In this document: positions 10,620 through 44,143 of the stretch, piece after piece
How positions within the stretch are numbered: the stretch's first letter is position 1
Layout of the letters: each line of letters starts with the position of its first letter
Origin: Escherichia coli
GTDB taxonomy: Bacteria > Pseudomonadota > Gammaproteobacteria > Enterobacterales > Enterobacteriaceae
NCBI RefSeq assembly: GCF_009931435.1
Contig: NZ_CP043414.1
Length of the DNA: 64,000 nt
Direction: 5' to 3' (one strand)
The notes under the pieces: generated by a model
What the model was told of the DNA's origin: nothing
The model's database searches: none
What the model saw: the letters and a program-made list of their open reading frames with translations, nothing else
Position numbers and translations under genes: made by a program

Positions 10620-10689
10620 GCGTTCATTAATTTGATTTATTTGCATCCATCAACGCTTTTAACTGCTCCGGCGTGCGGCACTATAATGG

Positions 10690-11440: not shown

Positions 11441-11593
11441 CTGGCCTTAACTTTCCCTGAATCTCTGACGATCCTCACCATTGATATTTTCTTCATTCCT
11501 CACCAGAGAAATAAAAAATCACTATACTCATCAAAATATGATGATCACCTTTATTCAGGTGATCACCTTACTATTTTATACGGAAAATAAATC

Positions 11594-12244
11594 ATGAATA
11601 TCCGTCAATCATTACATGACCGAATCTATGCAGAATACCCTCAACAGGCTAAAGATATATTACTGTATTTCCCCACTTATGAAATTATGCCATCGACCAT
11701 AAAAATGGTTATGATTAATGAGGTGGTAGCTATAACACCGCAAGAAGATTTTTATACACCAGAGTCTGGTTATTTTACGACTGTCGCCCGACAGTTAGCG
11801 CTGGCTGGATTATCGGCAAGTAGTGGCGAAGTCTTACTCAACCATGGTATCTACCTGACCTCCGCACTGAAACTACCTAAAACACAGATCACAGCCACAC
11901 CCGCGGAGATCATTCTCTGGTCACCTATTGTAGAATGGGAGCTCGAACTCTTTGCCAATATAAAAGTTATTTTCGTTGGCGGCGATATCGCGCGAAAATG
12001 CCTTAACATCATCGCGAAAAAGCAAACACGTAAACATGCCATCCCTTCAACTCCGACGTACAAACTGATGAATAGCGAATTAGTCTGGAAAGGAATAAGC
12101 ATACTTCCTGGATATATTCTTACCGGAAAAAACCTGCTCATTGAAAAGTCAAAAATCGAAATGAATGTCGAGCAATTAAGAAAAGGAATTGCGATTTATC
12201 GCAATAGTAACAGTAACCATACGAATAATTCAGTTCATGAATAA
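11594..12244 (+). CDS. Hypothetical protein, low GC; possible uracil-DNA-glycosylase-superfamily fold
   Basis: 216-aa ORF in AT-rich DNA. Four short motifs occur in the order typical of UDG-like folds (VMINEVVAITPQED; GIYLTSALKLP; KVIFVGGDIARK; IPSTPTY). The match is weak and based on pattern only. Confidence 0.4.
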   Translation: MNIRQSLHDRIYAEYPQQAKDILLYFPTYEIMPSTIKMVMINEVVAITPQEDFYTPESGYFTTVARQLALAGLSASSGEVLLNHGIYLTSALKLPKTQITATPAEIILWSPIVEWELELFANIKVIFVGGDIARKCLNIIAKKQTRKHAIPSTPTYKLMNSELVWKGISILPGYILTGKNLLIEKSKIEMNVEQLRKGIAIYRNSNSNHTNNSVHE

Positions 12245-12715
12245 GAGATGAATCATTAATAACAAGAAATCACTGACAAACCACCTGTAAAAGGTCAATC
12301 ATTTTAGTTCAATTTCCTTTGTCATGATTATATTTTTATCGTCCTGACGATACTATTAACAATTACAATATTTATACCCTCCCCTGAACAAACAGAAAAG
12401 AACTCATACATTCGTTTATAATTCTGGTAATCCTGGCATCATACGTTTAAAATTTAAGGTGTTTGTTTTATAATCATGGTTCCAAAGACTATTGGTCACC
12501 AGAAAATGCCAGCCTTTTCGTGCCAGCTATATTTGTCCAGTGTGTTACCCCATCCAAAAATCATCCACATCCTGATGTTATGTTAGATATAGAGAAAACA
12601 GGTTGTACTGTGCAATATGCTAACCGCATAAGCGAATATAATTTCTAAGCTGATATTGTCTGGCTGTTGGGAGCTAAACAATATAAATATCGCCAGTTGC
12701 CAGAACGGTTATATA

Positions 12716-12741
12716 GACCAGGAGCGTTTCGGCTCCTGGTC
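12716..12741. terminator. 10-bp-stem hairpin between convergent genes (putative bidirectional terminator)
   Basis: GACCAGGAGC-gtttcg-GCTCCTGGTC perfect inverted repeat located 17 bp beyond the stop of the UvrD-like gene and between convergent ORFs; flanking T-runs are short. Confidence 0.4.
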
Positions 12742-12757
12742 TGTTTCGGACATATTA

Positions 12758-14872
12758 TTAATCAGCCACTAATAGCGGACTAGGGATACCAGATGATGAA
12801 ACAAACAGCCCTTTTACGGCACGGGTTGCAGCCACATGCAGTAACGCGCGCTCATTAAATAATGCATCACGCTGTTCAACGGGATCATCGGATGCTAATG
12901 CTTTTATTTCCGGCACAACGCCTTCGTTAATCCCCACCAGGAACACATACTGGAACTCAAGCCCTTTAATACGGTGCATCGTTGCAACTCGCACGCCTGG
13001 GCGTGCATCGCTGTCACCGCTATCATTGCCTAAATTAAATGTCTCAATTCCGGCGTCATTGAGTGCTGATGCGTAGCGGTCACAAGCATGTTTAGTACGC
13101 GCAGTAATGCAGATATCCTGAGAACGAACCTGATTCGCCAGCAATGCCTGAATTTGCTTGACGAGTGTTGCAGCCTCTTCTTTGAAATCTGCCGCATGCG
13201 TAATCATGGGCTTTTCCCCGTGCAGTAATGACAAATAATCATTACTGGTATCCGCTTCGCCATCGAGGTTATCAACCTTCACACCAGTTAACAGCCCAAC
13301 AGCAAATTGACGCGTCTCTTCTGTGGTCCGATAGTTAATCTTCAATTTTTTACTGCGACGACCACGGACGTTAATACCACACTGACCAAGAACGACCTTA
13401 TTGCGATAAATACGCTGATGCCCATCCCCGACAATAAACAGATCGTTGGGCGACTCGGGAACCAGGCTGCGAATAAGAGTAAATGCCGGGGCACCGATAT
13501 CTTGAGCTTCATCGACGACAATACTGCTATAAGGTAGTTGGACCTGCTTTTCTTTAAACAGAACAATAGCCTCATGCATGGCATCGCCCATTTCGCGCAG
13601 TTTGGCACGCGCCATTTGTGCTCTGAATTCTTCGAAAACTGGCCAGATTTTCGCCCGTTGAATACGGGATAACGCTGTACCACGTCCAACCCGGCTGACT
13701 TTGAGGTATTCCTCCCGGGTGTAAACCGCATTTGGCTGGACAACGCGTTGCCACTCTTCAGCATAGAAATTGTCAGGTAGCCCCAGTTCGGCAGGTGCCT
13801 GCTGCAAGGCATAGTTCCAGCATTTACGTCGCCCTTCATCGCTGTCGTATACCACGCGGAAATCATAACCGTGGCGTTTTAGTTGGTCGCTCATCCAGGC
13901 ATCAATGTTAACGACGTCAATACGCGCCATCTCTTCTCGCGTACACAACCGCTGGAGATTAGCGCGAATATCTGCCGCCAGGTTACGCGTAAAGGTCGTG
14001 AAAAGTACCTTCTTACCGGGTTTATCTACCAGACGCTGAGATAACCACCGCGCACGGTGCATTGCAACAACCGTTTTCCCTGTACCTGCACCGCCCAGTA
14101 CTCGTACCGGACCATTAGCGGGCGACTCCACCAGTTTTCGCTGGCTCGGGTGCAGAAATACACGCCATTTTTCTAAAGGCGCATTAAGCATCTGCAATAG
14201 TTCCTGTTCATTTTCAACGACATGGAAGCGACGTTTACTTCGTTCAATCGCCTCCATAAAGTCGTTGGTATCAACAGGCTCATCACGATGATCGTTAAAC
14301 TCTTCCAGCACTTCCTGGTAATCCAGCCCTTCTGCCAGCCAGTGCAGAGGTTCCCAGGCTTCTGCTGGCATTATGCTTTCAAGTTGATTAAGCCCGGCTT
14401 CATCGGTAAGCGCCATCACCTGATCAATAAAGACAGGCGGCACACCCAGGGCCAGAATCTGTTCCGCGCTGTAAGCTGCGAAGAGTTTCGGTTTATCAAC
14501 CACCGTTTCCGCTGCCGGTTTGATATAGCTAATATCAATGACCTGAATCGCGCCAGTAACCGGGTGAATCGAACAATCATGCCGCCGCGCCCAGTCATAT
14601 GCTTCGTCGTGTTTATCCACCCACATCAGCATATACAGAGCACCCTGTTCAGGTTTCAGAACAATGCCGCGATAAGTTTGATCGATTCGCACCGAATGGA
14701 CATTTTTACTGCGCGCATCGTGGATCTTTTCATAGTTAAGTCCATTACTGGTCGGGTCCTGACGGAATTTGGAGATGAATTCCTGCACCTTTTTTTGCTG
14801 TGCTTTTGGGATCCGCGCGAATGCGCCCAGAAAACCATCAGAAAGTGCCACCTTGGGCGTTTGCACCGTCAT
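12758..14872 (-). CDS. UvrD/Rep-like superfamily-1 helicase with an extra N-terminal domain of about 200 aa (last gene of the DISARM-like operon)
   Basis: SF1 helicase motifs in order: Walker A GGAGTGKTVVAMHRA, VVDEAQDIG (motif II), FIVGDGHQRIY (motif III), KINYRTTEE (motif IV), ATMHRIKGLEFQYVFLV (motifs V/VI). The N-terminal region (...NVHSVRIDQTYRGIVL...) is not helicase-like. Its start overlaps the stop of the upstream giant gene by 4 bp (ATGA-type coupling). Confidence 0.7.
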   Translation of the reverse strand: MTVQTPKVALSDGFLGAFARIPKAQQKKVQEFISKFRQDPTSNGLNYEKIHDARSKNVHSVRIDQTYRGIVLKPEQGALYMLMWVDKHDEAYDWARRHDCSIHPVTGAIQVIDISYIKPAAETVVDKPKLFAAYSAEQILALGVPPVFIDQVMALTDEAGLNQLESIMPAEAWEPLHWLAEGLDYQEVLEEFNDHRDEPVDTNDFMEAIERSKRRFHVVENEQELLQMLNAPLEKWRVFLHPSQRKLVESPANGPVRVLGGAGTGKTVVAMHRARWLSQRLVDKPGKKVLFTTFTRNLAADIRANLQRLCTREEMARIDVVNIDAWMSDQLKRHGYDFRVVYDSDEGRRKCWNYALQQAPAELGLPDNFYAEEWQRVVQPNAVYTREEYLKVSRVGRGTALSRIQRAKIWPVFEEFRAQMARAKLREMGDAMHEAIVLFKEKQVQLPYSSIVVDEAQDIGAPAFTLIRSLVPESPNDLFIVGDGHQRIYRNKVVLGQCGINVRGRRSKKLKINYRTTEETRQFAVGLLTGVKVDNLDGEADTSNDYLSLLHGEKPMITHAADFKEEAATLVKQIQALLANQVRSQDICITARTKHACDRYASALNDAGIETFNLGNDSGDSDARPGVRVATMHRIKGLEFQYVFLVGINEGVVPEIKALASDDPVEQRDALFNERALLHVAATRAVKGLFVSSSGIPSPLLVAD

Positions 14873-17800
14873 TTGTCACCTCCGGACAGATGTTGCAATG
14901 TATTTTCGTCAATTGGCCCGAATGCAACGTGCCAACCCCTGGTTGTGAATAATGGAATAAATTCTTGATTATCAATAATCAATGCCCATTTTTGTGATGG
15001 CCAGGCGAGATCGGCTTCCGCAATAATTTCACCTTCATCATTTTGCAATTCGTAGCCGAGAGTCGGCGCAGAGAGAGAATGAGACTGAAGCAACGCGATC
15101 TCTTCAGCGCTTAATAAGCCAAACTCAATAATCTCAGCCCAACTTTCATCAGTCTCTGGTACTGCCTCTGGCGTTGCCGTAACTTTAACGTCAACGCTTT
15201 CCTGCGGTAAATGTACGGCTTTACGGCTGGTAAAGGTCATATCCGGCAGGAACTGTAACAGGTTTACCAGTCGCCAGAAGCCATTGAGTCCCGCTTCATA
15301 ACCGTCATCCTGCGTATAGCGATCGTCAAAACAGATATGCAAACGCAGCCAGCTGCGCATTTGTGCGACACTGGTCGTCGGTTTAATGGCTTGTTGTGGC
15401 AACACCGAAGCCAGCTCAATAAATTGCTGCGATGAGTTACAGCTATCGAGTAAACCACCAAAGACAAACGGTTCGTCTGGCAAAAGCTCTGCTAGCCGCC
15501 AGTCTGGCGCGTTTTCCTGCATTTCATAGGCATACTTTTGTTTCGTTCCCGCGTCCTGTGACTTCTTCACATCCAACCACACCCAGGCATGTGCAGCAGC
15601 CATTTTCTGCCATAACTGCGTTCTTCCTCCCGGCTCGGCGAGATAATCCAGCAGCAGTGCAAAACTGTTGCGTTCCCGGAACGACGCTTCAAGGGCCGCA
15701 AAGTTGGTATCGTGAAACAGGTTATAAAACTTAGGCTGTTTCATATCCGGGTTATGCCCAAGCCCCAGGACATCCTGAACATGTTTAAGCCCAGGCTCTT
15801 TGAGATCGGCCCACGTGACTGTCCACACCCAGAAATTACCGCTATCCCGAATCGCCTGGCGTTTTTGCACATCCTCTGCGACGCTATTTTTGTGAAACGC
15901 AAAGCCATCAAGGAAAATAGCTACCGGTTTAATGGCATCAGACTGCATAAGCGGATATAGCACGTAATCCGGGCGACAAGGGATCCCCACAGCCTCTTTA
16001 GCGCCTAAATCCACCTGAGCTTTAAGATGCCAGCTCATCATCGGTTCGCTGCGGGTGTTAATAATCCACCCAGCGCCCTGATGCGCGTAACTGCGACTGA
16101 CAATCAGGTTTTTATTTTCTTGCAGGCAGCTAATAAACCGTTTTTCCAGCTCACTGCCCATCATGGCTTCGAGGGAAATGTTTTTGATGGAATCAATTAC
16201 CCGTATCGAATCTCTTGCCTGCAAAATTTTCGCCAGCAAGAGACGCGCCTGATCGCGGGAGACATACTTCATGCGCCCACGGTCACGGTAAGCGTAAACG
16301 CAACGATAACAACCATCTTTATGCGTATCATGGTTGCAACTGCATTCCACTATCGCCTGATAGGCCAGTTCAAGTAATTTCAGCAAATTGTCGGGAGTGC
16401 GCATCAGCTCTTTAAGAGAACCAGTCCCCCCCGGGACGGTATCGTAAATCACCAGATACTGCCGCCAGGATTCGCCTTCATTTTCCGGCTCGCGGTACAC
16501 AACGCCTTTCAGGTGATCGACATTCCCCTTGAAGTAATGTTTAAGGCCGAGCTGGATCGCCGCCCCAAGAGAAGCCTCCACGACACGGTCATTACTGTAA
16601 CTGCTTACCGGGAGCAGAATTCGCAACGCTTCTGACTCCAGCTGGCGATAGAGATAGAGATAATCTTCGAACTTCGCCTTTTCCGGTTCCGTGCGATATT
16701 TGCAGCTCAAATCATGACGTGGTTCATGATCGCGAGGACGCTGTACCATGCCGCACCCCAGGCAAACTTTAAACCCGGTTCGCTTCTTCGCTTCTCCGGC
16801 AATCATCAACTCATTGGCATCATCCGCCATTTTGCCGAAGTTGATATCCCGCAGGGTGACTTTGCTTAAAAATTCAAAACCAAACGGAACTTCGCCTTCC
16901 TCAATCGCGTATGCCGCCGATACATCTTCTTTTTCGAAACTAACCAATAGCTGACGCTGGAAGAAAGCAGGTTCACGGCTGTCGCTCTCGTCGCTGATCT
17001 GGCTATCACGTGCGCTGGCGCGGGCATACACCTGGCGAAGTTTCAGCAGCGTGGTTTTTTGTCCGGCGTCGGCCCACCCCGGTGTGCCACATTTCGGGCA
17101 ATATTTATGCTGGTCGCCCGTCTGGTCGATATTTTCGCTGTAGTTACAGTGGCTACAGATACGCCAGTTCTCCGGCTCAGAGACCTTCAGGTCTATCTGC
17201 TCAATTTCAACTTTATGCCCACCGGCATAGAAATTATTCAGCGGAGCCAGCTCAGCCAGCGCCGTTGATGCCGGGCGTTCATATTCGAAAGTGGTGTTTT
17301 GATATTCACGCGCTTCCCCGCCTTCTTTACGCCGCCAGAGCACAGAACGTAACGTAATACCGGCTTCCGGGAAGGCGTAGTTAGGCAGCAGACCTTCATC
17401 CGTGAGGAAATTCAGCGTCTGCTTATTGTTGATTTGATTGACTAGCGCCATCAGCGCCTGCCGTTCTGAAGTTAACTCGCGCATATCGCTGTCAAAGTTT
17501 TGATCGCGCGGCGCGTTCTCCAGCTTATCGATACTGCGCTTGAGTTTATCGATGCGTGAACGCAGAGATTTGCGATCTTCCACCAGCAGTTTTAACGCCT
17601 CTTCGATACGCTGCACCAGAGAGCGTTGTCCTGGCGCGCCCTGAAGATAAGACAACAACTGTTGGCGAGTTTCTGCGGCAAGATCGGGGAAGATCGCCGT
17701 AAATTGTGCAGCAATCTCCGCATGATGCTGTTCGATATATCTCAGTAAGTTATACGGAAAACCCGATTTACGCCCGAACTCCAGCTCATCCAGCATCTGT

Positions 17801-20800
17801 TTGACGTTTTTACAGATAGCGGATTCTGGTACACCGGTTTTCACCCAGTTATCCATACAAAAAGCTGCCAGCTGGCGTTCGAGAATAGCCGTTGCATTGA
17901 GGAAGACGCCAGGAGCCTGCACCTGGCCCTGCATCATCTCCAGCGGTTCTTCAAAGAAAAACTGATCGTGCGGGTTCCCTTCTGCCACGGTAATGTTTAA
18001 CGCGTTACCATCTTTACGACCGGCGCGACCAATACGCTGCAAGTAGTTGGCCTGAGCAGGTGGGACAGAACAGAGTAAAACGGTGGAAAGATCCCCAACG
18101 TCAATACCCATCTCCAGCGTCGGTGTTGCCGACAACAGGTTGATATTCCACGGTTGGTTGCCACGGTAGAACGATTTTTCGGTGGCTTCGCGATCTTCAC
18201 GGCTAAGCAGCCCCGTGTGTTCTGCGCCCTGCACGCGCGCGATGTCCATGTTCTCCCAACGCCAGGTCGCCATATTGTCGACTTCCTGGTAACGACCTTC
18301 ACAACGTAAAGAGAGACAAGGCGCATTACGCCACTGCCAGCCTTGATCGGCCGGAGCCCGGACAACCTCACGGCAACATGAGCAATTAAGCTGAACGACG
18401 TCACGGCTCACCACCAGCGCCGAAGGCACCAGTCCCCAGGCTTCACGCCCTTTGGTGTCAAAATCTTTTACTACTCCGGCTATTTTCAACGCCGTAAACA
18501 GGCGTCGTAACACTGTTTCCGCAACGCTACTGATAAACAGATTATTGCCGTTACTCAGCGTGCGATTGATCCAATGCTGATACCAACTGGGGTTAGACTT
18601 CGCGCCAATCAGGCGATGGAAACCATTAATTTTTTCAAACGACGCATAAGCCGGTTTACGCGTTTTCGGACCGATAGAAGGCATATAGCGCGATGTACGC
18701 TCTTTTTGCGTCATCATAAAGGTCGTGCCATCACGGCGATAACTTTCGAACGCCGGATGCATAACGGCCCCGGCCTGGCGTTGATACCAGATAACCCCCA
18801 GCGCCAGGTGCGCTACCTGCTCGACGCTCACACCGGACATCTCATCACCCAGCTCTTCACAAAGCTGTTGATGCAGGGCGGTAATTGCCGGATTAAAGCG
18901 TTCTTTATCCACTCCGGCAACGGCATAACCGGTGGCTTCCAGCGTACGTCCGATACGCGCGCGCAGGGTAAATTCGCTGTACACCTCCCAGTCGAGGCGC
19001 AGGGAAACCAGCTCCGGCAGATCGGAGTTCTCCGCCAGTTTGCCTTCATTTTTCAGTGTCTGATAATCATTCAGCCACTGCATATTTGGTGCGATGAAGT
19101 TCGCTGCAAAATGAGCATCGTCCGGTGAACGTTCACGCGTTTGTTGGCAAACACGCGCCGCGAACGCATCCAGCGGTAATGTCTCTTTTTCGCCAAGAAC
19201 ACTGGCGATTTGCCCACGAATCATCAGCGGCCAGGTTCGGGCAGTAAAAAAGCTGGCACGATGCGCGGCGTCTTGTACCGAGTCAGAAAACGTAATCAGC
19301 TTTTTATGTTCGTTGAACTGGCTGCCATAAAGCTGGTGAATCATCACCGCCGACAAACTGGCAGCCCGTGACCCCAGAATCGAAATCCCCTGTTTGCTGT
19401 TGCAGTACGGGCATTCATTAGCAAACTCCAGCTCGTCCTTACGCTCTTTGAGCATATCCGGGATCAGTACCTGCAACAGTTCCGTATGACCGCAATGTCC
19501 ACACTGGACGCTGGACTGTCGGTTCAGTTTCAGACAGGTAGGGCACAGTTTCTGGTGTGCGCCACTGACCGCTTTTTCGTTGTTATCCGGGAAAGCAAGG
19601 ACGATGGAGCGCCCTTTTTCAAAGAACTGGCGATAAATGCCGTCGAGGTCTGTTTCCAGCTGAACGCTTTGCCCATGACGCAGGCTGGCCCAGCCAGTTG
19701 CGTGGCAGTCACGGCAGTGGATAACCGGCAAATAGTGTTCGCGGTCTTCCACCGCCACATCATCGGCAAACACCAGTCTCGGCGTTTTCGCCACGCTGGC
19801 GACCAGACGACGCATCTCACGAAGCCACAACTGGGAGCGCAGTTGCACAAACGGCAGCACCGGGCGCGCTTTCTTCGCCTGGAGACGTTTTTGCCGATCG
19901 TGTTCCATTTCCGGTACTTCGAGACGTGCCTGTGCGATCAGCGCCAGAATGCTTTGCAGCACGCGTCGGGCATGGTCGGCGCTTTCTGCCAGCATAACCT
20001 GGAGATTTTCCAGACACTCTCGTTCAGAGAGGATCCCGCCTTGCAGATCATGGAGTAAGACATGCATCACGCTGTGGCGGCGTAACAGTGACCCCAGCGC
20101 AATACGCTTTTCACGCCCGTCGTCGCTCTCCAGATCGTCCGGGAGTTGCAAGTCGCTGTCGGGGAACCACAAAGGGATTTGCCCGTTAAGATACGCTACC
20201 GGGGTAGCGTAACTCTGCGGGTCCAGGGCCGAAGCGACCTCCTGCCCCGGATACTGACTGTACGCAATGGCGTAATCCTGCAAGTACTCCGCTGCCGTGT
20301 AGCGATCTTCGCGAATAACGGCGTCATCGGTAAACGGCTGGTCAAAGATTGTTTTTGCGTAATCGAGCAGTTGCCCCAGTTCGTCGCCGACGGTCGCTGA
20401 TGTCCCGACACAGGCGAATCGTTGGTTATCCACACCTATGTGATGCTTCAGACGTCGCACCAGACAGGCCAGATCCGACCCTTGCGCGCCATCAAACGTA
20501 TGCAATTCATCCACGACCAGGTAGCGCAATGAACCGGGCTGGTTGTAACGCCAGAGCGGCTGATCGCCAGGGCGCATCAGCAGGTAGTCGAGCATTTTGT
20601 AGTTGGTCAACAGGATGTCCGGCGGGCTTTCGCGCAGCGTGTGCTTGCAGGTAATGACCTTTTCTGCCGACATTTTTTTGCTGGGTTCGATTTCGCTGTC
20701 GCCGACAAACAGGCCGACGGTCACCTTGCCATGCAGTTGTGGATCGCTGGCGATGGTTTTGGCGAAACGGCTGGCCTGATCGGTTGCCAGGGCGTTCATC

Positions 20801-21210: not shown

Positions 21211-24200
21211 CAGGCGCTCTCCTTATCTTGTGCAAAGAACGCCCAGGCCACTTTGTAGTCGTCTTCGCGATCCGGCTTGATAAACGGTGCCTGCCAGGTG
21301 ACGGTACGGCGCTCGCCTTCGTCGCTGCGGGTATAGTCATCAAAGGTGACGCTGACGGTACCGGTTTGCAAATGTTTGACATCATCCCAACCGATGGCTT
21401 GATCGGTGCAGTCACCGCCGGTCCACTCCGGGCTGTCGACGTTAAAGACAAAGCCGTTTTTCAGGTCAGCTTTACGCGCGGTGCGAGGCAAGCCAACGCC
21501 CACCAACCCTTTGCTTGGGGTAAAGATGATGCGGCCGTTTTGGTCGTACCAGGTGTCCGCTTCGTACTGACGCATCACCGGGAACTGTACACGGTAAATG
21601 GTAAGCAGCTCTTCGAGGGTTAACCCCAGCGCCTGTGCCACCAGAACGTCGATTTCCACCAGCGCCTGACGACGACTGTAGTCGGAGCGTAAGGCACAGT
21701 TACGCTGCCACTCTGGGGTCAGATTGGCGAAGAAATCTTGTGGGAGCTGCGGGAGATCGCGGCTCCAGCGTTGGGTATTGAAGTCTGGGGTGTAGCAGGA
21801 TTGCCAAAGGCCAGCATATACATCATTTACAGAATTTAATGATAATACTAAGCAGTATAATAATGCCTTTTGTCTCGGATTGAATAATACGTATGAGAAA
21901 CCATCAAGCATCTGATGTAAGTTTGCCTTGCCAGTAGATTTACAAATAAAATCAAAAGGTAAAGAAAAACACATACCTGAATGTTCGAGTAACTGATTCT
22001 GTGAGCTATAGCAGTAAGAACGTACTGCGTTCATGTGACTTATTTCTGGCGGATAAATAGCACTAATTAGTGTACGTTCCCCCGATTGAGCCAACATGGC
22101 TCTGATAGCTAAGCGATAATAATCTGTTACCTTCTTCGGTTCATCTTCAGCCAGTTCAGTCCATGTAACGCATGGAGTACGTTTGGCATACTCCTGTGCA
22201 TCACAGGCTGGAATATAGTTAGTGCGCGGCAAATAGTCGTCGGGCAGAGTTAGCAAGTCTAGGTTATCGTATGCTTTATTCGTGTCACAAACCGCTCTAG
22301 GCGTATTGTAGAAAGGATTGCCAACAAAAAAATGAGGGCCAGACAAAACCCATTGTGATGCTTCTTCCGGGAACTGTGTATGTCGCTCAATTGTACCATC
22401 GCTTTGCTGATTAGTTTCATGCCACATTTCTAGAGAATAATATTGCCCCTGCAAATCACCTAATCGCCTAGGTTGTTTCGCAAACTTTTCAAGTACTGTA
22501 ACTAATTGTGTAGCATGCAACGCAGGAAGACGGGCTTCCTGGGCAGGAGTTCCGACAACATCATAAAGACGCGCAAAAAGACCCAACTGTTTTAAATTTA
22601 TAGGCACGACTCGATCGAAATGTCCCTGGAAATTCCATTTAACTTTTACTTTGCCATCGATTTCAGTTTCTTCTTTTATCCCCGGGACAATGCCTTCCCC
22701 TTTATGTTCAAAACACGCGTCAATAGTTTGAGGAATAAATAAATTTGCTATATTTGAGAATGCCACTATCTGAGAATAGGGGCCATATACATTGATGCTA
22801 AATCTAGTGTGATTATCTACTTCAGCAAATATTTTAACTTCATTGGCAAATTGAAAATGCGCCCTCAACCTCGGGTACACTGCCGCACGCAACTGCCCAC
22901 CTTTCGGGTCATCATAAATCCCTTCCGGGTGCAGGAAGCCTGCCACGCCTTTCTCTGCCCCTAAGCGCCATGCCTGCGGCAGGAAGCATTTATACAAGTT
23001 GGTCTGCACCCCGCGCAGTACCGGGTAGTTTTGCTGCGCATTGAGGAAGTTTTGCATCCCTTCACAGCCTTCATACTCGCTGCGCCAGGCCGCTTCCAGC
23101 GCTGGGATCTGGTTAAAGGTATCAACACGCAACGTTGCCAGCTTCGATGCACTCAGCTTACGCAGCACAAATTCCGGCTCGTAATCACCCAGCACGCCCG
23201 CTTCCTGCCATTCCACTTTTAGCCACGGCGGGTTTCCGAGCATCAGGTCAAAACCGCCGCGCTCGGCAAACAAGTCGCAGAACTCCAGATCCCAGTGGAA
23301 GAAACGGTGCTGCTTTCTCAGGGCATCGACAATCGCCAGACGCGGCAAATGGCGGAACAGCACATCGGTTTTCAGACGACCAGCAACGGAAAACAGCGAA
23401 GACTCTTCTCGCAGCAGGCCTTCTTCGGCAAACAGATCGCCAGTGGTGTGATCCGCAACTTCAGTGACTTTTTCCGTGATTACAATCCCGTCGAGCAGGG
23501 TTTCAATCTCAAACAACCAGGTACCGCGATCCGGTAGCTCATCAGCTTTGTCGATCGGCCAGAACCACAGCGCGCACCAGTAGTCCATCACCCAACGCAG
23601 CTTCTGGTAGGCGCTGTTATCTTCAAGACGACCGCTAAAGGTTTCATCTTTACTGCTCAGCGAAGAACGTGTCTGCTCGCTGTTTTCTGCCGGCCACACC
23701 GGGTAGCTGTCGGCGGTTTTCAGACGTTCTGCTTTAAGTTGCTGGCGATAGGTGTTCCACAGTGCTTCCACCTTTTCGCTGATACGCTGCACATCAGCAA
23801 TCTCATGCCCGGCAAAGCTTTTAATAAACTCTTTGCGCCAGCTGTCCAGCGCTTTGAAGTCATCCGGATAACGCTGCTTAACAGTTTTATCGCTGTAATT
23901 AGCCATACCGCCGTCGGGCAGCAGGAAGTGGAAAATCTGCGTCTCTTCACGCGGCGTGTTCATCGCCAGTTCGACCGGCTCGCTGTTAAGCCAGCTCGGA
24001 TCTTTGACTTTTTTGTAGGTCAGTTCGCTCTTGTTGAACACCTGACGGCGCGCGCCCACCAGCGAGTTACCGCAGTGCAGCTGGTAACCAAACCACGGTA
24101 CAAAGGCATCGCCACTGATGGCGTTCAGCCACAGTGACACTTCCGCCAGCTCCACCGCCACCGGGTTTAAGTCCACGCCGAAAACGTTGTTGTCGGCAAT

Positions 24201-26144
24201 GTACATTTTCACCCGCTGTAACTCCTGGGTGTAACGATCCTGCGGAATACGTCGACCTTCCGCCTGCTGTTTGTGGAACAGATACGCTTCCGCCAGCTGG
24301 TTGATGGCTTCGTTAAGGAACGCCGCGCTGCCCATCGCCGGTTCGCACACGGTGAGGTTTAAGATGGCATCAGCTTTGGCGTGCGGATCGCTAATGGGAT
24401 CAATCTGCTCCTTAAACAACTCTTTCAGGGCATATTTAACCAGTGAGCGGGTCAGCACTTCCGGGGTGTAATAAGAGGCAGATTTCTCACGGTCGCGTCC
24501 GGCCATACGGTAGATAAAACTGCCTTTGCGGTGAATGCGCAGGCTGCCGTCTTTCTCGTAGACCTTCTCGTCTTCGTGGTATTTGCCAATCTCATCCTTA
24601 CTGACGAAGTAACCCGTCTCCAGCTCGTTAAACTCTTCTCCGGCTTTCTTCACCTCGTAGAGATCTTCGCTGGCGAAGAATCCGCGATAGGAGAGCAGTG
24701 CCTCATACACCGCACCCAACTGGTTGATACCCAACTGGCGATAAGAAATACGTCCGCGGCGGTTAAAGCGCTCTTTGCCCGGGCGGCTTAACGACATCGC
24801 CTGGATAATCTGTTGCAGGGTTTCGTTACGGAATACCACGCGGTTAAGAATGCGCGTGTTGTTGGCATCAAACAGATGACTTTCCAGACGCGGGACGCTG
24901 AACTGATGACTATGGATGGTGATCCGGTCGCCGCTCTCCAGGTCACTCTGCATTTTCACGCCGCCGTTGTAGCCTTCGCGCACCAGTTTAAACAGCATAT
25001 TCAGGCTGTCGTGGAAGTAGCGCCCGTTGCGATCTTCTTCGCTGGTCAGCGGGATCATCTCCAGATCGCGCAACGTTTCCAGGCTGTAACCTTGCAGATA
25101 GGTTTTGGCGGTCATCGGCGCATAACCCAGCTCCGGGCGCGCTTCAATGTAGAACAGGAACAGCAGGCGGTACATGTAACGCAGACATTCGCGGCTCAGT
25201 TCATCCGGGTCCACCGCACGGTTACCGGTATAGTTTGCCAGGCCACGGTCGATCAGGTAATGCATCGCTTCGTTGCCCAGCAGCTCAATGCTTTCGCGCA
25301 GGGCATATTTCAGATCTTCCGACACGCCAAACGCATGTTTGTGCGAATTGTCATCCAGCGAGTCAAGATAAGGTGCCCCACTGCCCGGCAGCAGAGAATC
25401 TTTATGTAGCAACACCGCCGTCGCTTTCAGCGTATCCGTTTCACGACGACTTAAAATCTCTTCAAAATCAAAACGCAGCAGACGGTTTTGCGCCCACTTA
25501 GTACGGTCCAGCAGCAATAGCTGACGGTTACCGAGCAATAGCACAAAACGCGGAGGTTCATTTTGGGTGAAGACCGCCGTAGAGAGCAGATCTTGCCAGC
25601 TGCGATATTCACCGTTGGCTTTTTTGCGCAGGCTGTCGCGCTTATGTTTGTCGGTATCCGCCGGGAATTGCGCGGTCAGTAAAGAGAGCGCCAGCGGATC
25701 CAGCGTTCCCTCTTCCTGATCGTGTGCTTCGACAATCCACAGCCACGGGCTACCGTCAGTGCTGTTGTAACGCGCCAGTACCGGCAGCGGTGTATCGTCA
25801 TCCAGCATTTGGATCTGCGGCGTAATTTCGTAACCCAGCGCCTTTAACAATGGCTGCCAGCGATTACGTTGATCGGCCAGACGTTGCGGGATCTGACGCT
25901 GTTTTTCGTGCTCGGCAAGTTTGCGGAAAAACTCAGTCGCCAGACTGTTAAACTGGTTCCACGGAGCGCGGTATCCCGGCTCTACGTCTTTGCCCTGTTC
26001 ACGAGCGGCACGCTCCGCTTCACGCGCTGCATTTTCCTGGGCTATCCAGGGTTCCAGCACATCGCGGATATCACTGGTGAAAACCTCACCCAAATAGTGG
26101 TTAGAGTAAAATTCGTTTTCGTTATTAATACCGACCAGCGCCAT
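21210..26144 (-). CDS. Very large (1644 aa) gamma-class N6-adenine DNA methyltransferase (DrmMI/PglX-like)
   Basis: AdoMet-binding motif I (...LNLTVCEPAMGSAAFLNEAINQ) followed later by the catalytic motif IV LMLGNPPWLKVEW (NPPW), which is the gamma-class order. It has long N- and C-terminal extensions and sits 2 bp downstream of the SNF2 gene. Confidence 0.75.
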   Translation of the reverse strand: MALVGINNENEFYSNHYLGEVFTSDIRDVLEPWIAQENAAREAERAAREQGKDVEPGYRAPWNQFNSLATEFFRKLAEHEKQRQIPQRLADQRNRWQPLLKALGYEITPQIQMLDDDTPLPVLARYNSTDGSPWLWIVEAHDQEEGTLDPLALSLLTAQFPADTDKHKRDSLRKKANGEYRSWQDLLSTAVFTQNEPPRFVLLLGNRQLLLLDRTKWAQNRLLRFDFEEILSRRETDTLKATAVLLHKDSLLPGSGAPYLDSLDDNSHKHAFGVSEDLKYALRESIELLGNEAMHYLIDRGLANYTGNRAVDPDELSRECLRYMYRLLFLFYIEARPELGYAPMTAKTYLQGYSLETLRDLEMIPLTSEEDRNGRYFHDSLNMLFKLVREGYNGGVKMQSDLESGDRITIHSHQFSVPRLESHLFDANNTRILNRVVFRNETLQQIIQAMSLSRPGKERFNRRGRISYRQLGINQLGAVYEALLSYRGFFASEDLYEVKKAGEEFNELETGYFVSKDEIGKYHEDEKVYEKDGSLRIHRKGSFIYRMAGRDREKSASYYTPEVLTRSLVKYALKELFKEQIDPISDPHAKADAILNLTVCEPAMGSAAFLNEAINQLAEAYLFHKQQAEGRRIPQDRYTQELQRVKMYIADNNVFGVDLNPVAVELAEVSLWLNAISGDAFVPWFGYQLHCGNSLVGARRQVFNKSELTYKKVKDPSWLNSEPVELAMNTPREETQIFHFLLPDGGMANYSDKTVKQRYPDDFKALDSWRKEFIKSFAGHEIADVQRISEKVEALWNTYRQQLKAERLKTADSYPVWPAENSEQTRSSLSSKDETFSGRLEDNSAYQKLRWVMDYWCALWFWPIDKADELPDRGTWLFEIETLLDGIVITEKVTEVADHTTGDLFAEEGLLREESSLFSVAGRLKTDVLFRHLPRLAIVDALRKQHRFFHWDLEFCDLFAERGGFDLMLGNPPWLKVEWQEAGVLGDYEPEFVLRKLSASKLATLRVDTFNQIPALEAAWRSEYEGCEGMQNFLNAQQNYPVLRGVQTNLYKCFLPQAWRLGAEKGVAGFLHPEGIYDDPKGGQLRAAVYPRLRAHFQFANEVKIFAEVDNHTRFSINVYGPYSQIVAFSNIANLFIPQTIDACFEHKGEGIVPGIKEETEIDGKVKVKWNFQGHFDRVVPINLKQLGLFARLYDVVGTPAQEARLPALHATQLVTVLEKFAKQPRRLGDLQGQYYSLEMWHETNQQSDGTIERHTQFPEEASQWVLSGPHFFVGNPFYNTPRAVCDTNKAYDNLDLLTLPDDYLPRTNYIPACDAQEYAKRTPCVTWTELAEDEPKKVTDYYRLAIRAMLAQSGERTLISAIYPPEISHMNAVRSYCYSSQNQLLEHSGMCFSLPFDFICKSTGKANLHQMLDGFSYVLFNPRQKALLYCLVLSLNSVNDVYAGLWQSCYTPDFNTQRWSRDLPQLPQDFFANLTPEWQRNCALRSDYSRRQALVEIDVLVAQALGLTLEELLTIYRVQFPVMRQYEADTWYDQNGRIIFTPSKGLVGVGLPRTARKADLKNGFVFNVDSPEWTGGDCTDQAIGWDDVKHLQTGTVSVTFDDYTRSDEGERRTVTWQAPFIKPDREDDYKVAWAFFAQDKESA

Positions 26145-26146
26145 GA

Positions 26147-29005
26147 TTAACCCTCCGCTCCGGTGATAACAGCAATTACCTGAATGTAGGGTTCTTTTTC
26201 AGTCGTCATGGTGTCCTCAATCCATTCAATATAGCTGTCAAAATTGTGTTCGATTTCGCGTTGTCTCTGCTCTTTACGGCTCTGCTTAACTGACAATTGC
26301 TGTTTGTTATCGGCAAAATCCAGCTCAAGTTGGCTCAACTGCCGCCCACGCAAAACGTCCAGCTTTTGCAGATGCTCATTCAGTTGCTGGTTAATGTGCG
26401 TTTCAAACGCATTCCGATCATGGATGAATACCTCCCGGGCATGAGCAATAGCCGCTTCCAGTAAATCCTGCTGGCGCTGGTGATTACGATCTTTACCGCC
26501 GCTGTTAGTCAGCTTGTTACTCAACTGCGGATGACGTTGTAAAAACTCAGCAAATGGCTGACTGCCGATTAGCGATTCACGGTTAAAGCTCACCACTATC
26601 CACGGGTTCACCATCGGATGTGATTTACGGTTCGGGAATAACCCGGAAAGAATGAAGTGATCTTCATCGGGTTCAAGCAGGTATGGCAGACGGATAACCG
26701 GTGCCTGATGACGACCAAAAGCCGAAGAGATTTTATCGTCCAGCCACTGCACTACCGGGTTGATTTGCCAGAGATACTGCACATCGGGCCAGGCATGTTG
26801 CTCACCGCGAGCGCGTGCAATCGCGTCGGTGATGACGGTTTTATCCTGACTTAAATAGAGCTGCCAGTTCTCCGGGGCGATTTCAGGCGGTAGCTGGTTG
26901 AAGCGGCGGCGTAACTCCTCCGGTGCCACCAGCGACAAGGTATTATCAGGCAAGGTTTCATACTGGATAGTTTGACCACTGGCTTTCAGGTAACCCAATG
27001 CTCTTTCGCAGTACGCCTGTTCGCTGGCAAACAAGCTGGTGTCTGTTTCGGTAACCATTGAGGCATCGCTGGAAACCGCACTGCATATTTCGCCAAACAG
27101 ATCATGTTCGGCGCTTTCCGAGACGTTGCTGTTCAGCAGTTGATCAAACAGGCTGGCACCATCATCCTGCATCATGAACTCTGCAACCTGCTCTTCTTCC
27201 TCTTCCTGGGTAAATTTGCCGGTAAACTCCGAACTGTCCCCAATGTTCTTCTGCGCCTGTTCGTCTTTGTTGATCAACACTTCCAGTACGCGCATATCGC
27301 CATTGATCTGCGGTTCGCTGGCCTCGGTAAGCAGATAGCGGATTTGAGGCTGATGTTTTTGCCCATAGCGGTCAATACGCCCGTTACGTTGCTGGAATAC
27401 CATCAACGACCACGGAATATCAAAGTGAATCATTTTGTGGCTAAGGTGATGCAGGTTGATCCCTTCAGATGCCACATCCGAACAAACCAGAAGACGCAAC
27501 GGCGACTGCGTTTTACCAAAGGCTTCTACGGTTTCCATCAACACCGTATCGCCCTGATCGCCGCGCAGCGTGGCGATCTGATCATCTTTCAATTTCAGAT
27601 CCGCTCGCAGTTGCTGTTCGAGGAACTCCAGCGTTTTAATGCTTTCGGTGAAGATCACCAGGCGATCTTCCGTGTTATTGGCTTTCCAGGCGAGGTCTTT
27701 TCGGATGGTGTCGAGCAGCAACTGGTATTTGCTAAACTGGCTGGCATCAATGTTATTCAGCGCCAACAGCAATGACTCCAGTTCGTTGATCTGGCTCTGG
27801 CTATTATGATCTTTACGGCTCTCAAGACGCTTCAGACGATTAGCCACTACGCTGGCACACGCCATCGGGCTGGAAAATAGCGCTTTTTCGAGGGTTATCT
27901 TGAACAGACGACCTTTGTTAGACTGGGCCTGTTCATCGTCATCATCACGGAACTGACTCTCAACCAGGCGACGGTATGCTTCTTCTTCGGCACCGGATGC
28001 CAGGCGAGTCAGTTTGACAATATTGCGCTCGGGGAACTCGCCAGACATCTGATCTTTCACGTCTTTTTTGAAGCGACGGACAACCAGATTTTTATCGGCA
28101 AAGTCGGCGTATTCATACTCTTTCGGGTTGGCGATCGCCGTCGGGTCAAGCATGTTCATCAGGCTGGCAAAACTTTCAGCTTTACCATCATGCGGCGTTG
28201 CTGAAAGCATAATCAGCGTATCGCTGCGCCCGGCGAGCAGTTTTGCCAGTTTACTGCGTAACGAACTGGTTCCACGTTCTGCGACGTTATGGGCCTCATC
28301 AATGACAATAATATCCCACCAGGCATTTTCCAGATGGTGACGATATTCAATATCTTGTTTCAGCGTATCGATGGAGATAATGGTCTTGTCAAAATAGTGG
28401 AACGGGTTGTGGTTGGTAGGGATGCGGTTACGCACTTTTTGTAAACCAGCAGAATCCAGGCGGGTCAATGGGATCGCAAAACGGCTCCAGAACTCCTTCT
28501 GGAATTGTGTCAGCATCGATTTAACCGCCAGAACCAGAATACGTTTTCCGCGCCCACGACGGATCAGTTCCGAAACCAGAATACCCGCTTCCAGCGTTTT
28601 ACCCAGACCGACAGCGTCGGCAATGAGTATCCGCTGACGCGGTTGTGCCAGCGCCATCCGCGTAGGATCGAGCTGAAACGGCATGGAATCCATCGCCGCC
28701 AGATGTCCAAAATGGACTTTACTGTCTGTCGGTACGCGTTGGCGTAACTGACTTTCAATATACAACTGTGCCGCCTGATAATTGGCGGATTCATCTTCCA
28801 CCAAATGCGTTTTTGCGGGATCAAGGATCTCTACTTTTTGTTCCAGTTTGGTCAGAAATAACCCTTCTTTACCGCGCACCAGCTCTGAAATACCATCGCA
28901 GGTCAGCAAATACCCACCATCACCACTGTCATCCGCCCGGCGAATACGCCATTCGGCATCACGAATAACCACCCGCATACCAGGTGCATAATTTTGCTTA
29001 TTCAT
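26147..29005 (-). CDS. SNF2/RAD54-family helicase (DrmD-like), first gene of the DISARM-like operon
   Basis: ADAVGLGKTLEAG (motif I), IVIDEAHNV (DEAH), LMLSATPHDG (motif III), C-terminal QQRNGRIDRYGQK (motif VI). Preceded by a 223-bp intergenic region containing inverted repeats. Confidence 0.75.
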   Translation of the reverse strand: MNKQNYAPGMRVVIRDAEWRIRRADDSGDGGYLLTCDGISELVRGKEGLFLTKLEQKVEILDPAKTHLVEDESANYQAAQLYIESQLRQRVPTDSKVHFGHLAAMDSMPFQLDPTRMALAQPRQRILIADAVGLGKTLEAGILVSELIRRGRGKRILVLAVKSMLTQFQKEFWSRFAIPLTRLDSAGLQKVRNRIPTNHNPFHYFDKTIISIDTLKQDIEYRHHLENAWWDIIVIDEAHNVAERGTSSLRSKLAKLLAGRSDTLIMLSATPHDGKAESFASLMNMLDPTAIANPKEYEYADFADKNLVVRRFKKDVKDQMSGEFPERNIVKLTRLASGAEEEAYRRLVESQFRDDDDEQAQSNKGRLFKITLEKALFSSPMACASVVANRLKRLESRKDHNSQSQINELESLLLALNNIDASQFSKYQLLLDTIRKDLAWKANNTEDRLVIFTESIKTLEFLEQQLRADLKLKDDQIATLRGDQGDTVLMETVEAFGKTQSPLRLLVCSDVASEGINLHHLSHKMIHFDIPWSLMVFQQRNGRIDRYGQKHQPQIRYLLTEASEPQINGDMRVLEVLINKDEQAQKNIGDSSEFTGKFTQEEEEEQVAEFMMQDDGASLFDQLLNSNVSESAEHDLFGEICSAVSSDASMVTETDTSLFASEQAYCERALGYLKASGQTIQYETLPDNTLSLVAPEELRRRFNQLPPEIAPENWQLYLSQDKTVITDAIARARGEQHAWPDVQYLWQINPVVQWLDDKISSAFGRHQAPVIRLPYLLEPDEDHFILSGLFPNRKSHPMVNPWIVVSFNRESLIGSQPFAEFLQRHPQLSNKLTNSGGKDRNHQRQQDLLEAAIAHAREVFIHDRNAFETHINQQLNEHLQKLDVLRGRQLSQLELDFADNKQQLSVKQSRKEQRQREIEHNFDSYIEWIEDTMTTEKEPYIQVIAVITGAEG

Positions 29006-29228
29006 CGGTTTTTCTGTCTATTTGGGGCAGTGGCGGTAACGTCATCCTGAAAAATGTGGCGCGGCACACTGCGATAAAAAAGAGGGCCTTAAAGATATCA
29101 TGAAGGCCCCCGGCAAAGTGACAAAATGGGAGGGAATGCGCATAAATTGCGCATGATTTTCAAACAAAAATTATTAAAAAGTGAGCTGGGTCAACTCCCC
29201 TGGAAGATATCCCCAGGGGAGCAATTAT
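29006..29228. promoter_or_regulatory. Intergenic region between druE-like and the SNF2 gene with two perfect inverted repeats (putative terminator and operator/promoter)
   Basis: CTCCCCTGG-aagatatc-CCAGGGGAG at 29195..29221 lies 8 bp beyond the druE-like stop. ATGCGCA-taaat-TGCGCAT at 29136..29154 is a second palindrome. AT-rich sequence follows toward the SNF2 start. Confidence 0.45.
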
Positions 29229-40766: not shown

Positions 40767-40772
40767 TCGATC

Positions 40773-41480: not shown

Positions 41481-41483
41481 GAG

Positions 41484-44064: not shown

Positions 44065-44143
44065 GGAGAATGTCCTTATACGTTCTCAGAACAGGCAGCA
44101 AAAAAACAAATGAGATCAAGGTAATATATCTTCACTTGCAGGC

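Follow-up and report, generated by a model that had tools for sequence, protein, structure and literature searches.

The question raised by the locus considered here is whether four very large, tightly packed genes of an Escherichia coli genome form a novel defense system or a copy of a known one. The genes occupy the minus strand at positions 12758–29005 of the window, i.e., the whole 64,000-nucleotide stretch of contig NZ_CP043414.1 (assembly GCF_009931435.1) that was analyzed. The initial annotation described them as a DISARM-like but atypical operon whose arrangement matched no described system. As to the layout, it was exact: the list of open reading frames comprises four minus-strand genes of 952, 1644, 2113, and 704 aa at the very coordinates given there, namely armA (26147–29005), armB (21210–26144), armC (14869–21210), and armD (12758–14872), with 2 bp between armA and armB, an overlap of 1 nt between armB and armC, and one of 4 nt between armC and armD. 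As to novelty, it did not hold, since two preprints of 2025 already name and test this architecture at the same locus in E. coli. The block is very likely an intact ARMADA type II anti-phage system (armABCD), orthologous to the validated loci of E. coli O157:H7 and ATCC 8739. The system is already described, and the locus represents one more intact copy rather than a new system; the fresh lead is limited to the shuffled variable segments of the ArmB methyltransferase.

ARMADA type II (ArmA–D) was named by Bell et al. (bioRxiv, September 2025; PMC12458937), who carried out deletion and point-mutation tests in E. coli NCTC 12900 and ATCC 8739. In strain EDL933, the locus corresponds to z5899–z5902 on O-island 172, and deletions of the genes and of the operon were tested there (10.1101/2025.09.22.677730). 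The strict gene order of this type (a BrxHII/RapA-like SNF2 helicase, a PglX-like methyltransferase, a YprA-like helicase, and a GajB-like helicase) is found in the window, and the four genes share their order, lengths, coupling, and residue numbering with ARMADA II of NCTC 12900, EDL933, and ATCC 8739. All eight residues mutagenized by Bell et al. are present under the same numbering and in the expected motifs. The identity to the O157:H7 orthologs amounts to 100% for ArmA (compared with the protein of O157:H7 F3113), 94.7% for ArmB, 99.4% for ArmC, and 99.7% for ArmD, so that the ArmB allele alone sets the window apart from the O157:H7 proteins. The armABCD block displays 97–98% DNA identity to a locus present in about 10% of complete E. 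coli genomes (535/5,426), O157:H7 included. The synteny extends much further: in a metagenomic locus only 51% identical (L014), which lacks an adjacent Druantia, the four genes retain their order and overlapping junctions.

Near-identical loci have been reported to protect against many dsDNA phages, the hypermodified T-even phages being exempt; the protection is direct, non-abortive, and synergistic with Druantia III. All four arm genes are needed for the defense, the armD deletion in EDL933 causing a weaker defect than that of armA, armB, or armC, and the deletion strains of EDL933, including that of armB, grow like the wild type when phage is absent. The residues required comprise Walker A and B of ArmA and ArmC, Walker A of ArmD, and the NPPW motif of ArmB (PMC12458937). 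These phenotypes were obtained from loci with 99.4–100% identical ArmA, ArmC, and ArmD but another version of the first variable region of ArmB. EHEC O157:H7 is reported to owe its phage resistance mainly to ARMADA II, a point of relevance to phage therapy.

The first protein, ArmA (Walker A K136, Walker B D236), is the SNF2 helicase expected from the initial annotation, with the Pfam domains SNF2-rel_dom and Helicase_C. It matched the PADLOC profiles DrmD (332.7 bits) and BrxHII (200.6 bits) as well as the NCBIfam models RapA (132.9 bits) and DISARM_DrmD (NF038317 equivalog, 349.7 bits, i.e., below the curated cutoff of 610); judged by these scores, it is a relative of DrmD and not an equivalog. 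DISARM class 1 (DrmD, DrmMI, DrmA, DrmB, and DrmC; Ofir et al. 2018; the system of Serratia sp. SCBI) is among the closest described systems. Both systems feature an SNF2 helicase, an NPPW N6-adenine methyltransferase, a YprA-family helicase with DUF1998/MZB, and, likely, a DNA-targeting, non-abortive mode of defense. Unlike DISARM, the locus encodes the helicase and DUF1998/MZB in a single 2113-aa ORF rather than in separate adjacent drmA and drmB genes, carries a fused Vsr-type nuclease instead of the separate PLD protein DrmC, and possesses an extra RelE-UvrD gene; the DrmA score of ArmC is 49 bits, and no PLD domain was found in Pfam scans of the four Arm proteins. A standard DISARM class 1 system was rejected on three counts: the absence of separate DrmA and DrmB genes, the absence of a PLD DrmC, and the DrmD score below the cutoff. 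In this respect, the initial annotation judged correctly that the locus is not standard DISARM, and its anatomy stands: a DISARM-related set in which a DrmA/DrmB-like fusion bears a Vsr-like tail, a PLD DrmC is missing, and an SF1 helicase comes last. It considered the block on its own, apart from the adjoining Druantia III and Zorya II.

ArmC (Walker A K110, Walker B D234) is a YprA-family DExH helicase-nuclease which had been described as a helicase fused to DUF1998 and a Vsr-like nuclease, and all of these parts were found. The RecA1/DEAD domain (aa 84–278; 20377–20961; Pfam DEAD, 3.8e-22) and the RecA2/Helicase_C domain (aa 993–1066; 18013–18234; Pfam, 1.1e-10) are spaced by ~700 aa with large insertions; the insertions of ARMADA II helicases were reported to include BrxA-like, beta-barrel zinc-binding, MarR-like, and coiled-coil elements, and nine CxxC motifs occur in ArmC, e.g., at residues 499, 556, 570, and 600. 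The MZB (former DUF1998) zinc-binding domain was recovered by Pfam PF09369 (8e-13) at aa ~1549–1638 (16297–16566). It is followed by a putative Vsr-type PD-(D/E)xK nuclease domain (aa ~1690–1805; 15796–16152; D1748, D1768, H1773, D1780, and R1784). Pfam detected no DUF559/Vsr in ArmC and the sequence search of solved structures returned no match to its C-terminus, but fold-level comparison revealed a Vsr fold with conserved D/D/H, so this domain is a predicted Vsr-type nuclease; the literature contains no report of nuclease activity for ArmC. The number of homologs of the C-terminus depends on the method, a word-indexed search giving 8 matches and an exhaustive search of representatives 949. 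The extreme C-terminal module (aa ~2021–2096; 14923–15150) is shared with the C-terminus of ZorE (PADLOC ZorE2, 5.7e-9), BLASTP aligning 57 aa of it with the window’s own ZorE at 40% identity, and is probably what Bell et al. termed an “inactivated Vsr” domain.

ArmD (K266, D454) comprises a GajB-like UvrD SF1 helicase (Pfam UvrD-helicase and UvrD_C; PADLOC GajB, 123.4 bits, with the match starting from aa 240) preceded by the N-terminal domain that had been noted as unrelated. Neither the sequence search of solved structures nor Pfam (aa 1–240) found anything in this N-terminus; fold-level comparison assigned aa ~1–115 (14528–14872) to the RelE/ParE fold. The core of ArmD thus resembles Gabija GajB, whose profiles are its best match, but differs from Gabija in the lack of a GajA partner and in the RelE-fold N-terminus lying outside the GajB profile coverage.

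The block belongs to a known leuX-linked island. On the same strand, it adjoins Druantia type III (29229–38902), i.e., druE (29229–35552; PADLOC DruE3, 2182.5 bits, full length) and druH (35543–38902; DruH3, 2551.2 bits, full length), a block which also yields a 988-bit match to the NCBIfam family STY4851/ECs_5259. Divergently from druHE, on the plus strand, lies Zorya type II (zorA2, zorB2, and zorE; 39114–42587; PADLOC ZorA2 999, ZorB2 347, and ZorE2 586 bits). The island is bounded by tRNA-Leu(CAA) (leuX; 48422–48506, minus strand, ARAGORN), with the core genes ahr, idnK, idnD, and idnO beyond it. The O157:H7 locus has the same neighbors, Druantia III and Zorya II, but harbors an IS66 insertion, whereas the window locus at leuX is free of IS66. 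In a plasmid-borne copy, DruE again adjoins armA. The two YprA helicases of the island, DruE (2107 aa) and ArmC (2113 aa), are paralogous, both with RecA insertions and MZB, and the profile scores of ArmC (PADLOC DruE3 347.6 and DruE1 323.7 vs. DrmA 49.4 bits) show that, at this level, it resembles DruE far more than DrmA. Compared directly, they are similar in the helicase core only (34% over 211 aa and 23% over 721 aa). In the literature, DruE is described as having PLD-like domains at its end and DruH as its partner; ArmC, in contrast, terminates with a Vsr-fold nuclease and is accompanied by an SNF2 helicase, a methyltransferase, and a UvrD helicase. ArmC as a second DruE was also rejected, the DruE3 profile matching it in two stretches only vs. 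the full-length match of the true DruE; immediately upstream, armC is preceded by armB and not by druH, the druH of the window being paired with the true druE.

The druE–armA intergenic region (29006–29228, minus strand; 223 bp) contains hairpins and a weak promoter-like site (TTGTCA-16-CATGAT at 29124–29097). Over positions 12300–29400, the scans returned 14 promoter-like sites vs. 15.3 expected from shuffled sequences and 29 terminator-like sites vs. 19.6 (sd 4.5). Since these counts are at or near the shuffled expectation, the scan is no evidence for or against a single transcript. Bell et al. obtained defense with armABCD cloned with native promoters (PMC12458937).

Two other accounts of what the block represents can be weighed at this point. 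That it is an undescribed defense system, whether a novel subtype of DISARM or a separate system that depends on methylation, is scarcely credible by now. Its appeal came from genuine DrmD-like and DrmMI-like similarities and from databases: RefSeq gives the four genes only generic product names, and PADLOC-DB v2.0.0 (2023) lacks models for ARMADA, which leaves the four proteins scattered over the DrmD, REase_MTase_IIG/DrmMI, DruE, and GajB profiles. Against it stand the naming and testing of ARMADA in the two preprints, already cited in 2026 papers, the identical numbering of the catalytic residues, a gene content that does not differ from armABCD, and the departures from DISARM listed above. 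It is also improbable, if less so, that the four genes are the distal half of a single six-gene Druantia III and ARMADA II machine (druH-druE-armA-armB-armC-armD). The six genes are co-directional with a druE–armA gap of just 223 bp, both halves include a paralogous YprA helicase, the plasmid copy keeps DruE beside armA, and 426 E. coli genomes carry both systems, whose synergy is phage-specific; yet armABCD alone on a BAC protects (PMC12458937), strains without druHE are still defended by ARMADA, 17 E. coli genomes possess ARMADA II only, no Druantia lies within 10 kb of the four genes in L014, and the druE–armA gap carries the hairpins and the promoter-like site. A separate four-gene ARMADA II remains the preferred account.

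The most intricate component is ArmB, a PglX/YeeA-like methyltransferase that the initial annotation had recognized as gamma-class N6-adenine-specific by its NPPW motif. The catalytic NPPW is indeed present at aa 971–974 (23223–23234; context LGNPPWLKVE), about 365 aa from the SAM-binding GxG (aa 603–605; 24330–24338; context EPAMGSAAF). The published substitutions fall on these sites: N971A abolishes the defense, while G605A in the SAM motif causes a partial loss of activity only (PMC12458937). Partial loss in G605A sits uneasily with an essential methyl transfer. Since the defense is lost in N971A and the armB deletion is harmless without phage, ArmB should be regarded as an effector component, not just an antidote. 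The best profile for ArmB is PADLOC REase_MTase_IIG PDLC03614 (953.9 bits, near full length), the DrmMI match (192 bits) being partial; the matches to NCBIfam PglX (25–27 bits), MADS2, and Pfam Eco57I, MmeI_Mtase, and N6_Mtase are weak. Pfam recognized no domain in aa 1001–1644, the first ~540 aa received no assignment, and no solved relative was found in a sequence search or with a profile including the 51%-identical ortholog. No recognition motif or methylation by ArmB has been reported, methylation being absent from the main text of both ARMADA preprints, and a literature search by locus tags and accession found no methylome assignment for the O157 methyltransferase.

Variation in ArmB is restricted to two segments, both of which follow NPPW on its C-terminal side. 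Variable region 1 (VR1; aa ~1101–1300; 22245–22844) accounts for 74 of the 87 differences from O157:H7, and its column entropy is 0.5–1.3 bits vs. at most 0.26 elsewhere in the protein. Variable region 2 (VR2; aa ~1341–1450; 21795–22124) shows a mean pairwise identity of 0.36–0.40. Among 120 ArmB alleles, the first half of VR1 (VR1a) falls into 11 classes and VR2 into 15, which reassort independently, 30 combinations of the 11 × 15 having been seen. One VR2 class is shared, at 62% identity, with the ortholog in L014. The GC content of VR1 (0.40) and VR2 (0.37) is lower than that of the armB gene (0.516), i.e., the cassettes look foreign in base composition and are shuffled between strains and genera inside an otherwise nearly invariant operon. 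In the window, VR2 is the same as in O157:H7, whereas VR1 is about 54–72% identical to the O157:H7 version and has no match of at least 95% among the 5,426 E. coli genomes; this pairing differs from every experimentally tested allele, so the activity of the window ArmB is assumed. Neither silent VR cassettes nor repeats for phase-variable switching were found within the window; hence, the diversity of ArmB is one between strains.

Target-recognition domains of gamma-class MmeI and PglX-type methyltransferases lie C-terminal to the catalytic motif. The hypervariable segments of ArmB occupy the corresponding place, and, by analogy, ArmB may be likened to PglX of BREX and to the Type IIG MmeI family, i.e., to large gamma-class N6-adenine methyltransferases needed for both restriction and modification. 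Unlike in BREX, its match to PglX models is weak and its partners are helicases rather than BREX proteins; unlike in the MmeI family, no nuclease domain was detected in it. Judged by their position and variability, VR1 and VR2 are probably specificity modules, a subject not discussed in the main text of either preprint. The chances are about even that they make up a bipartite DNA-specificity determinant, so that ARMADA II would be a sequence-reading, methylation-guided system with an enterobacterial combinatorial library of specificities, comprising at least 11 × 15 classes. The allele analysis singles out ArmB as the component in which to seek how ARMADA tells phage from host DNA. If correct, the bipartite reading would provide a direct handle on the self/non-self rule of ARMADA and might account for the fact that, of all genes of the island, armB alone diversifies; if the cassettes set a DNA motif, the natural alleles would be a ready-made panel.

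The corresponding mechanism, as a whole scheme, is given the same even odds. ArmB would read a sequence motif via its two variable C-terminal modules, mark the host DNA by N6-adenine methylation, and, like PglX in BREX, provide the effector complex with its recognition subunit. Where phage DNA is unmodified, ArmA (the SNF2 translocase) and ArmC (the YprA helicase) would load onto it and unwind it, the Vsr-type nuclease fused to ArmC would cut, and ArmD, with its UvrD motor and RelE-fold domain, would support processing. Still, the profile match to PDLC03614 might be taken to mean that ArmB works by itself as a Type IIG restriction-modification enzyme, with the three helicases as accessory or unrelated neighbors, for which the weak MmeI_Mtase and Eco57I matches could also be cited. 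This is very unlikely: the PDLC03614 label is presumably a database prediction taking in ArmB orthologs, and a stand-alone enzyme was rejected, since Pfam, NCBIfam, and PDB sequence and profile searches found no nuclease domain in ArmB, and the defense needs all four genes; besides, a locus of 51% identity retains both the order and the translational coupling of the genes, and the sole recognizable nuclease sits on ArmC. A more serious competitor, possible but clearly less probable than sequence reading, is that ARMADA II senses DNA structures (ssDNA, free ends, or forks) without methylation-based self/non-self discrimination, ArmB being a DNA-binding scaffold; jointly with this, the variable segments might, with a similarly modest likelihood, reflect escape from phage-encoded inhibitors and not motif specificity. 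Recent literature lends it weight, as DruE binds ssDNA and is a 3′-5′ helicase and DISARM DrmAB recognizes 5′-overhang DNA, and so do the only partly defective SAM-site mutant and the lack of any reported ArmB-dependent motif. Sequence reading by ArmB is nevertheless favored by the essential NPPW asparagine, by the modular, bipartite, and reassorting variation located exactly at the target-recognition position of gamma-class methyltransferases, and by the escape of the hypermodified T-even phages, just as from sequence-reading restriction systems.

The four-gene minus-strand feature is real and intact, and it represents the already known ARMADA type II system in its usual island. It is composed of armA (26147-29005; SNF2 helicase, 952 aa), armB (21210-26144; methyltransferase, MTase, 1644 aa), armC (14869-21210; YprA-like helicase, 2113 aa) and armD (12758-14872; UvrD helicase, 704 aa). 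The ORF table agrees exactly with the initial annotation, whose label "tightly coupled" is accurate, since the junctions, read directly, are a 2-bp gap (armA/armB, TAA-TC-ATG), a 1-nt overlap (armB/armC, TGATG) and a 4-nt overlap (armC/armD, ATGA). The anatomy was described correctly there; the claim of an undescribed arrangement fell, as the full-text search found this exact locus in two preprints (PMC12458937; 10.1101/2025.09.22.677730). ARMADA type II is defined by a strict gene order, beginning with a BrxHII/RapA-like helicase (ArmA) and a PglX-like MTase (ArmB), followed by the YprA-like helicase ArmC with a Vsr-type nuclease at its C-terminus (PMC12458937). All eight residues mutagenised by Bell et al. 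occur at identical numbers and in the expected motifs in the window proteins, i.e., GKT and DEAH in ArmA, MGS and NPPW in ArmB, GKT and DELH in ArmC, and GKT and DEAQ in ArmD; the NPPW motif noticed earlier thus harbors N971. The proteins equal those of O157:H7 strain F3113 in length, with identities of 100% (ArmA), 99.7% (ArmD), 99.4% (ArmC) and 94.7% (ArmB). A metagenomic locus only 51% identical retains the SNF2-MTase-YprA-UvrD order and the overlapping junctions with no Druantia alongside; thus, the four arm genes constitute a conserved, self-contained unit.

The profile searches bear out most domain calls made from the sequence. In ArmA, Pfam confirmed SNF2-rel_dom and Helicase_C, and PADLOC placed it among DrmD/BrxHII-like SNF2 helicases (DrmD, 332.7 bits; BrxHII, 200.6 bits). 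ArmB matched the Type IIG RE-MTase profile over nearly its full length (953.9 bits) and DrmMI partially (192 bits, both PADLOC), along with weak Pfam matches to Eco57I, MmeI_Mtase and N6_Mtase. ArmC features DEAD (84-278), Helicase_C (993-1066) and MZB (~1549-1638) domains in Pfam, the latter being the renamed DUF1998 that the initial annotation had recognized; its PADLOC scores for DruE (347.6 and 323.7 bits) far exceed that for DISARM DrmA (49.4 bits). The UvrD domains of ArmD span aa 241-693 (Pfam), and PADLOC relates it to GajB-like UvrD helicases (123.4 bits), in line with the proposed SF1 helicase. The suggested DISARM affinity holds for the DrmD-like ArmA and the partial DrmMI match of ArmB, but not for class 1 membership: DISARM class 1 possesses separate DrmA and DrmB and a PLD-family DrmC, whereas here DrmA/DrmB are unsplit, a PLD domain is absent from all four proteins (Pfam), matching the noted lack of a separate DrmC, and the DrmD score stays, at 349.7 bits, under the curated cutoff (610). 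ArmC and the neighboring DruE are alike in the helicase core only, with identities of 34% over 211 aa and 23% over 721 aa.

The Vsr/DUF559-like nuclease proposed for the 2113-aa protein is right at the fold level, though Pfam is blind to it, because ArmC keeps the motif SRPDF...IAVF-DGF-YH...R...D-AKR (D1748, D1768, H1773, D1780, R1784). Further downstream, a module of ~57 aa at the extreme C-terminus of ArmC (aa ~2021-2096; window 14923-15150) recurs at 40% identity (E 2e-8) at the C-terminus of ZorE (zorE, 41484-42587), so that ARMADA II and Zorya II, two systems of the same island, have a terminal domain that is homologous between them and may be a degenerate Vsr-like module. In the RelE fold of ArmD (aa 1-115; window 14528-14872), E48, R62, R68 and H88 are invariant among 60 homologues. 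These residues resemble the YoeB-type catalytic set (Glu/Arg/His), so that, instead of being a relic, the fold may have RNase activity or form a conserved site for binding nucleic acids.

Among 5,426 complete E. coli genomes, 535 contain the 16.8-kb block at 97-98% identity, with O157:H7 prominent, and the same search returned 23 plasmid copies. In the F3113 annotation, the neighbors are as in the window: one flank bears fim/nan genes, and the opposite flank bears Druantia III, Zorya II, a phosphorothioate-dependent restriction endonuclease and a degraded integrase. Upstream of armA, two giant ORFs on the same (minus) strand, which the initial annotation did not mention, encode full-length DruE3 (druE, 29229-35552, 2107 aa, 2182.5 bits) and DruH3 (druH, 35543-38902, 1119 aa, 2551.2 bits); PADLOC, the source of both calls, also detected divergent genes for ZorA2, ZorB2 and ZorE2 (39114-42587). 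A divergent gene pair follows (43414-45073), bordered by duplicated nanM fragments, a sign that insertions happened there before. Its 309-aa product is a phosphorothioated-DNA-binding restriction endonuclease (NCBIfam NF045808, 435.9 bits), and the 216-aa one, with a weak Type IV REase profile match, carries the annotation HNH endonuclease in a RefSeq locus of 99% identity; the pair is a fourth defence module of the island. Between the phosphorothioate-dependent endonuclease and leuX, a low-GC stretch contains a 682-aa ORF (45696-47744, minus strand), a hypothetical protein in RefSeq with no PADLOC or NCBIfam match; it is a candidate for an additional gene of defence or of a mobile element. 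The tRNA-Leu(CAA) gene (48422-48506) marks the end of the island in the window and is followed by core idn genes. The 168-kb NDM-5 resistance plasmid pEC22-NDM-5 (NZ_CP060893.1, 2444-24248) likewise has a complete armABCD immediately preceded by druE, and remnants of IS1 and IS3 as well as an integrase edge the block; therefore, it also travels with carbapenem-resistance plasmids.

Orthologous loci protect directly and non-abortively, for which three ATPase motors and the catalytic asparagine of the MTase are necessary (PMC12458937). The cloned E. coli NCTC 12900 cluster protects non-abortively against 13 of 80 phages and requires all four arm genes as well as ArmA K136 and D236, ArmC K110 and D234, ArmD K266 and ArmB N971, while ArmD D454N and ArmB G605A have partial effects; ARMADA II of ATCC 8739 protects against 30 of 66 phages in synergy with Druantia III (PMC12458937). 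In EDL933, z5899-z5902 of O-island 172 were named armABCD; ARMADA II was the dominant defence, hypermodified Tevenvirinae were unaffected, deletion mutants, including that of armB, grew like the parent in the absence of phage, and the same three-system island was found in 426 E. coli genomes (10.1101/2025.09.22.677730). Papers of 2026 cite ARMADA II as a neighbor of Druantia III, adding nothing on the mechanism.

By analogy with PglX, which combines recognition and modification in one BREX subunit, ArmB would serve as both the recognition subunit and the modifier; ArmA and ArmC would translocate along and unwind unmodified DNA, to be cut by the ArmC Vsr domain, with ArmD assisting. We give this sequence-specificity model about an even chance. 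The leading alternative is that the system senses DNA structure and uses no methylation code, a mode now proposed for DruE and DrmAB; the partial phenotype of ArmB G605A (PMC12458937) is consistent with it. The remaining value of the locus lies in the mechanism and in the cassette structure of ArmB as a means to test it.

As many as 74 of the 87 differences between the window ArmB and that of O157:H7 fall within aa 1100-1300. Alignment of eleven ArmB alleles revealed two variable regions, VR1 (aa ~1101-1300; 22245-22844) and VR2 (aa ~1341-1450; 21795-22124), in a scaffold 96-100% identical. Both are C-terminal to NPPW, where gamma-class, MmeI-type and PglX-type enzymes harbor their target-recognition domains (TRDs). 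In the 5,426 E. coli genomes, the window VR1 DNA has no match of at least 95%; the best one reaches 92.3% and comes from a single genome, and all others, often partial, lie between 60 and 80%. The two regions reassort independently: the VR1 of the window ArmB is nearest to that of strain 24A16CRGN010 and its VR2 is that of O157:H7, another compared allele (L004) joins the O157 VR1 to the VR2 of L006, and that of the NDM-5 plasmid joins the VR1 of L005 to the VR2 of L008. A panel of 120 ArmB cluster representatives was drawn from Escherichia, Salmonella, Klebsiella, Serratia and Cronobacter, with a bias towards alleles related to that of the window. Its alignment columns have an entropy of no more than 0.26 bits outside the variable regions and of 0.5-2.0 bits inside, and 11 classes of the first half of VR1 and 15 VR2 classes form 30 combinations, 9 of the 11 former classes being joined to more than one VR2 class. 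The GC content is 0.40 in VR1, 0.37 in VR2 and 0.516 in the whole armB, and no silent cassettes lie within the window. VR2 of the 51%-identical metagenomic locus and one E. coli class agree at 62% of positions, exceeding the identity between most E. coli classes. The main texts of both preprints neither discuss this variation nor mention methylation or TRDs, the EHEC one stating only that armB is the variable gene (10.1101/2025.09.22.677730); the literature search returned no methylome paper citing the arm locus.

Two further loci depart from the four-gene layout. On one contig (JGI 3300076002, 10001-18613), the genes of a 2138-aa ArmC-like helicase and a 710-aa UvrD helicase stand together, lacking an upstream SNF2 or MTase gene; in front of them are a PIN/PSK toxin-antitoxin pair and unrelated genes. 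A two-gene variant and a rearranged locus cannot be told apart here because the contig ends 270 bp past the UvrD gene. A P4-like element that also encodes a primase, AlpA and an integrase carries an ARMADA II-like locus (GCA_030252245.1, CP126972.1, 5001-9989) that may be a five-gene variant, with an extra gene between those of the MTase and the YprA helicase encoding a 1662-aa protein with Pfam SACS and NOV_C domains.
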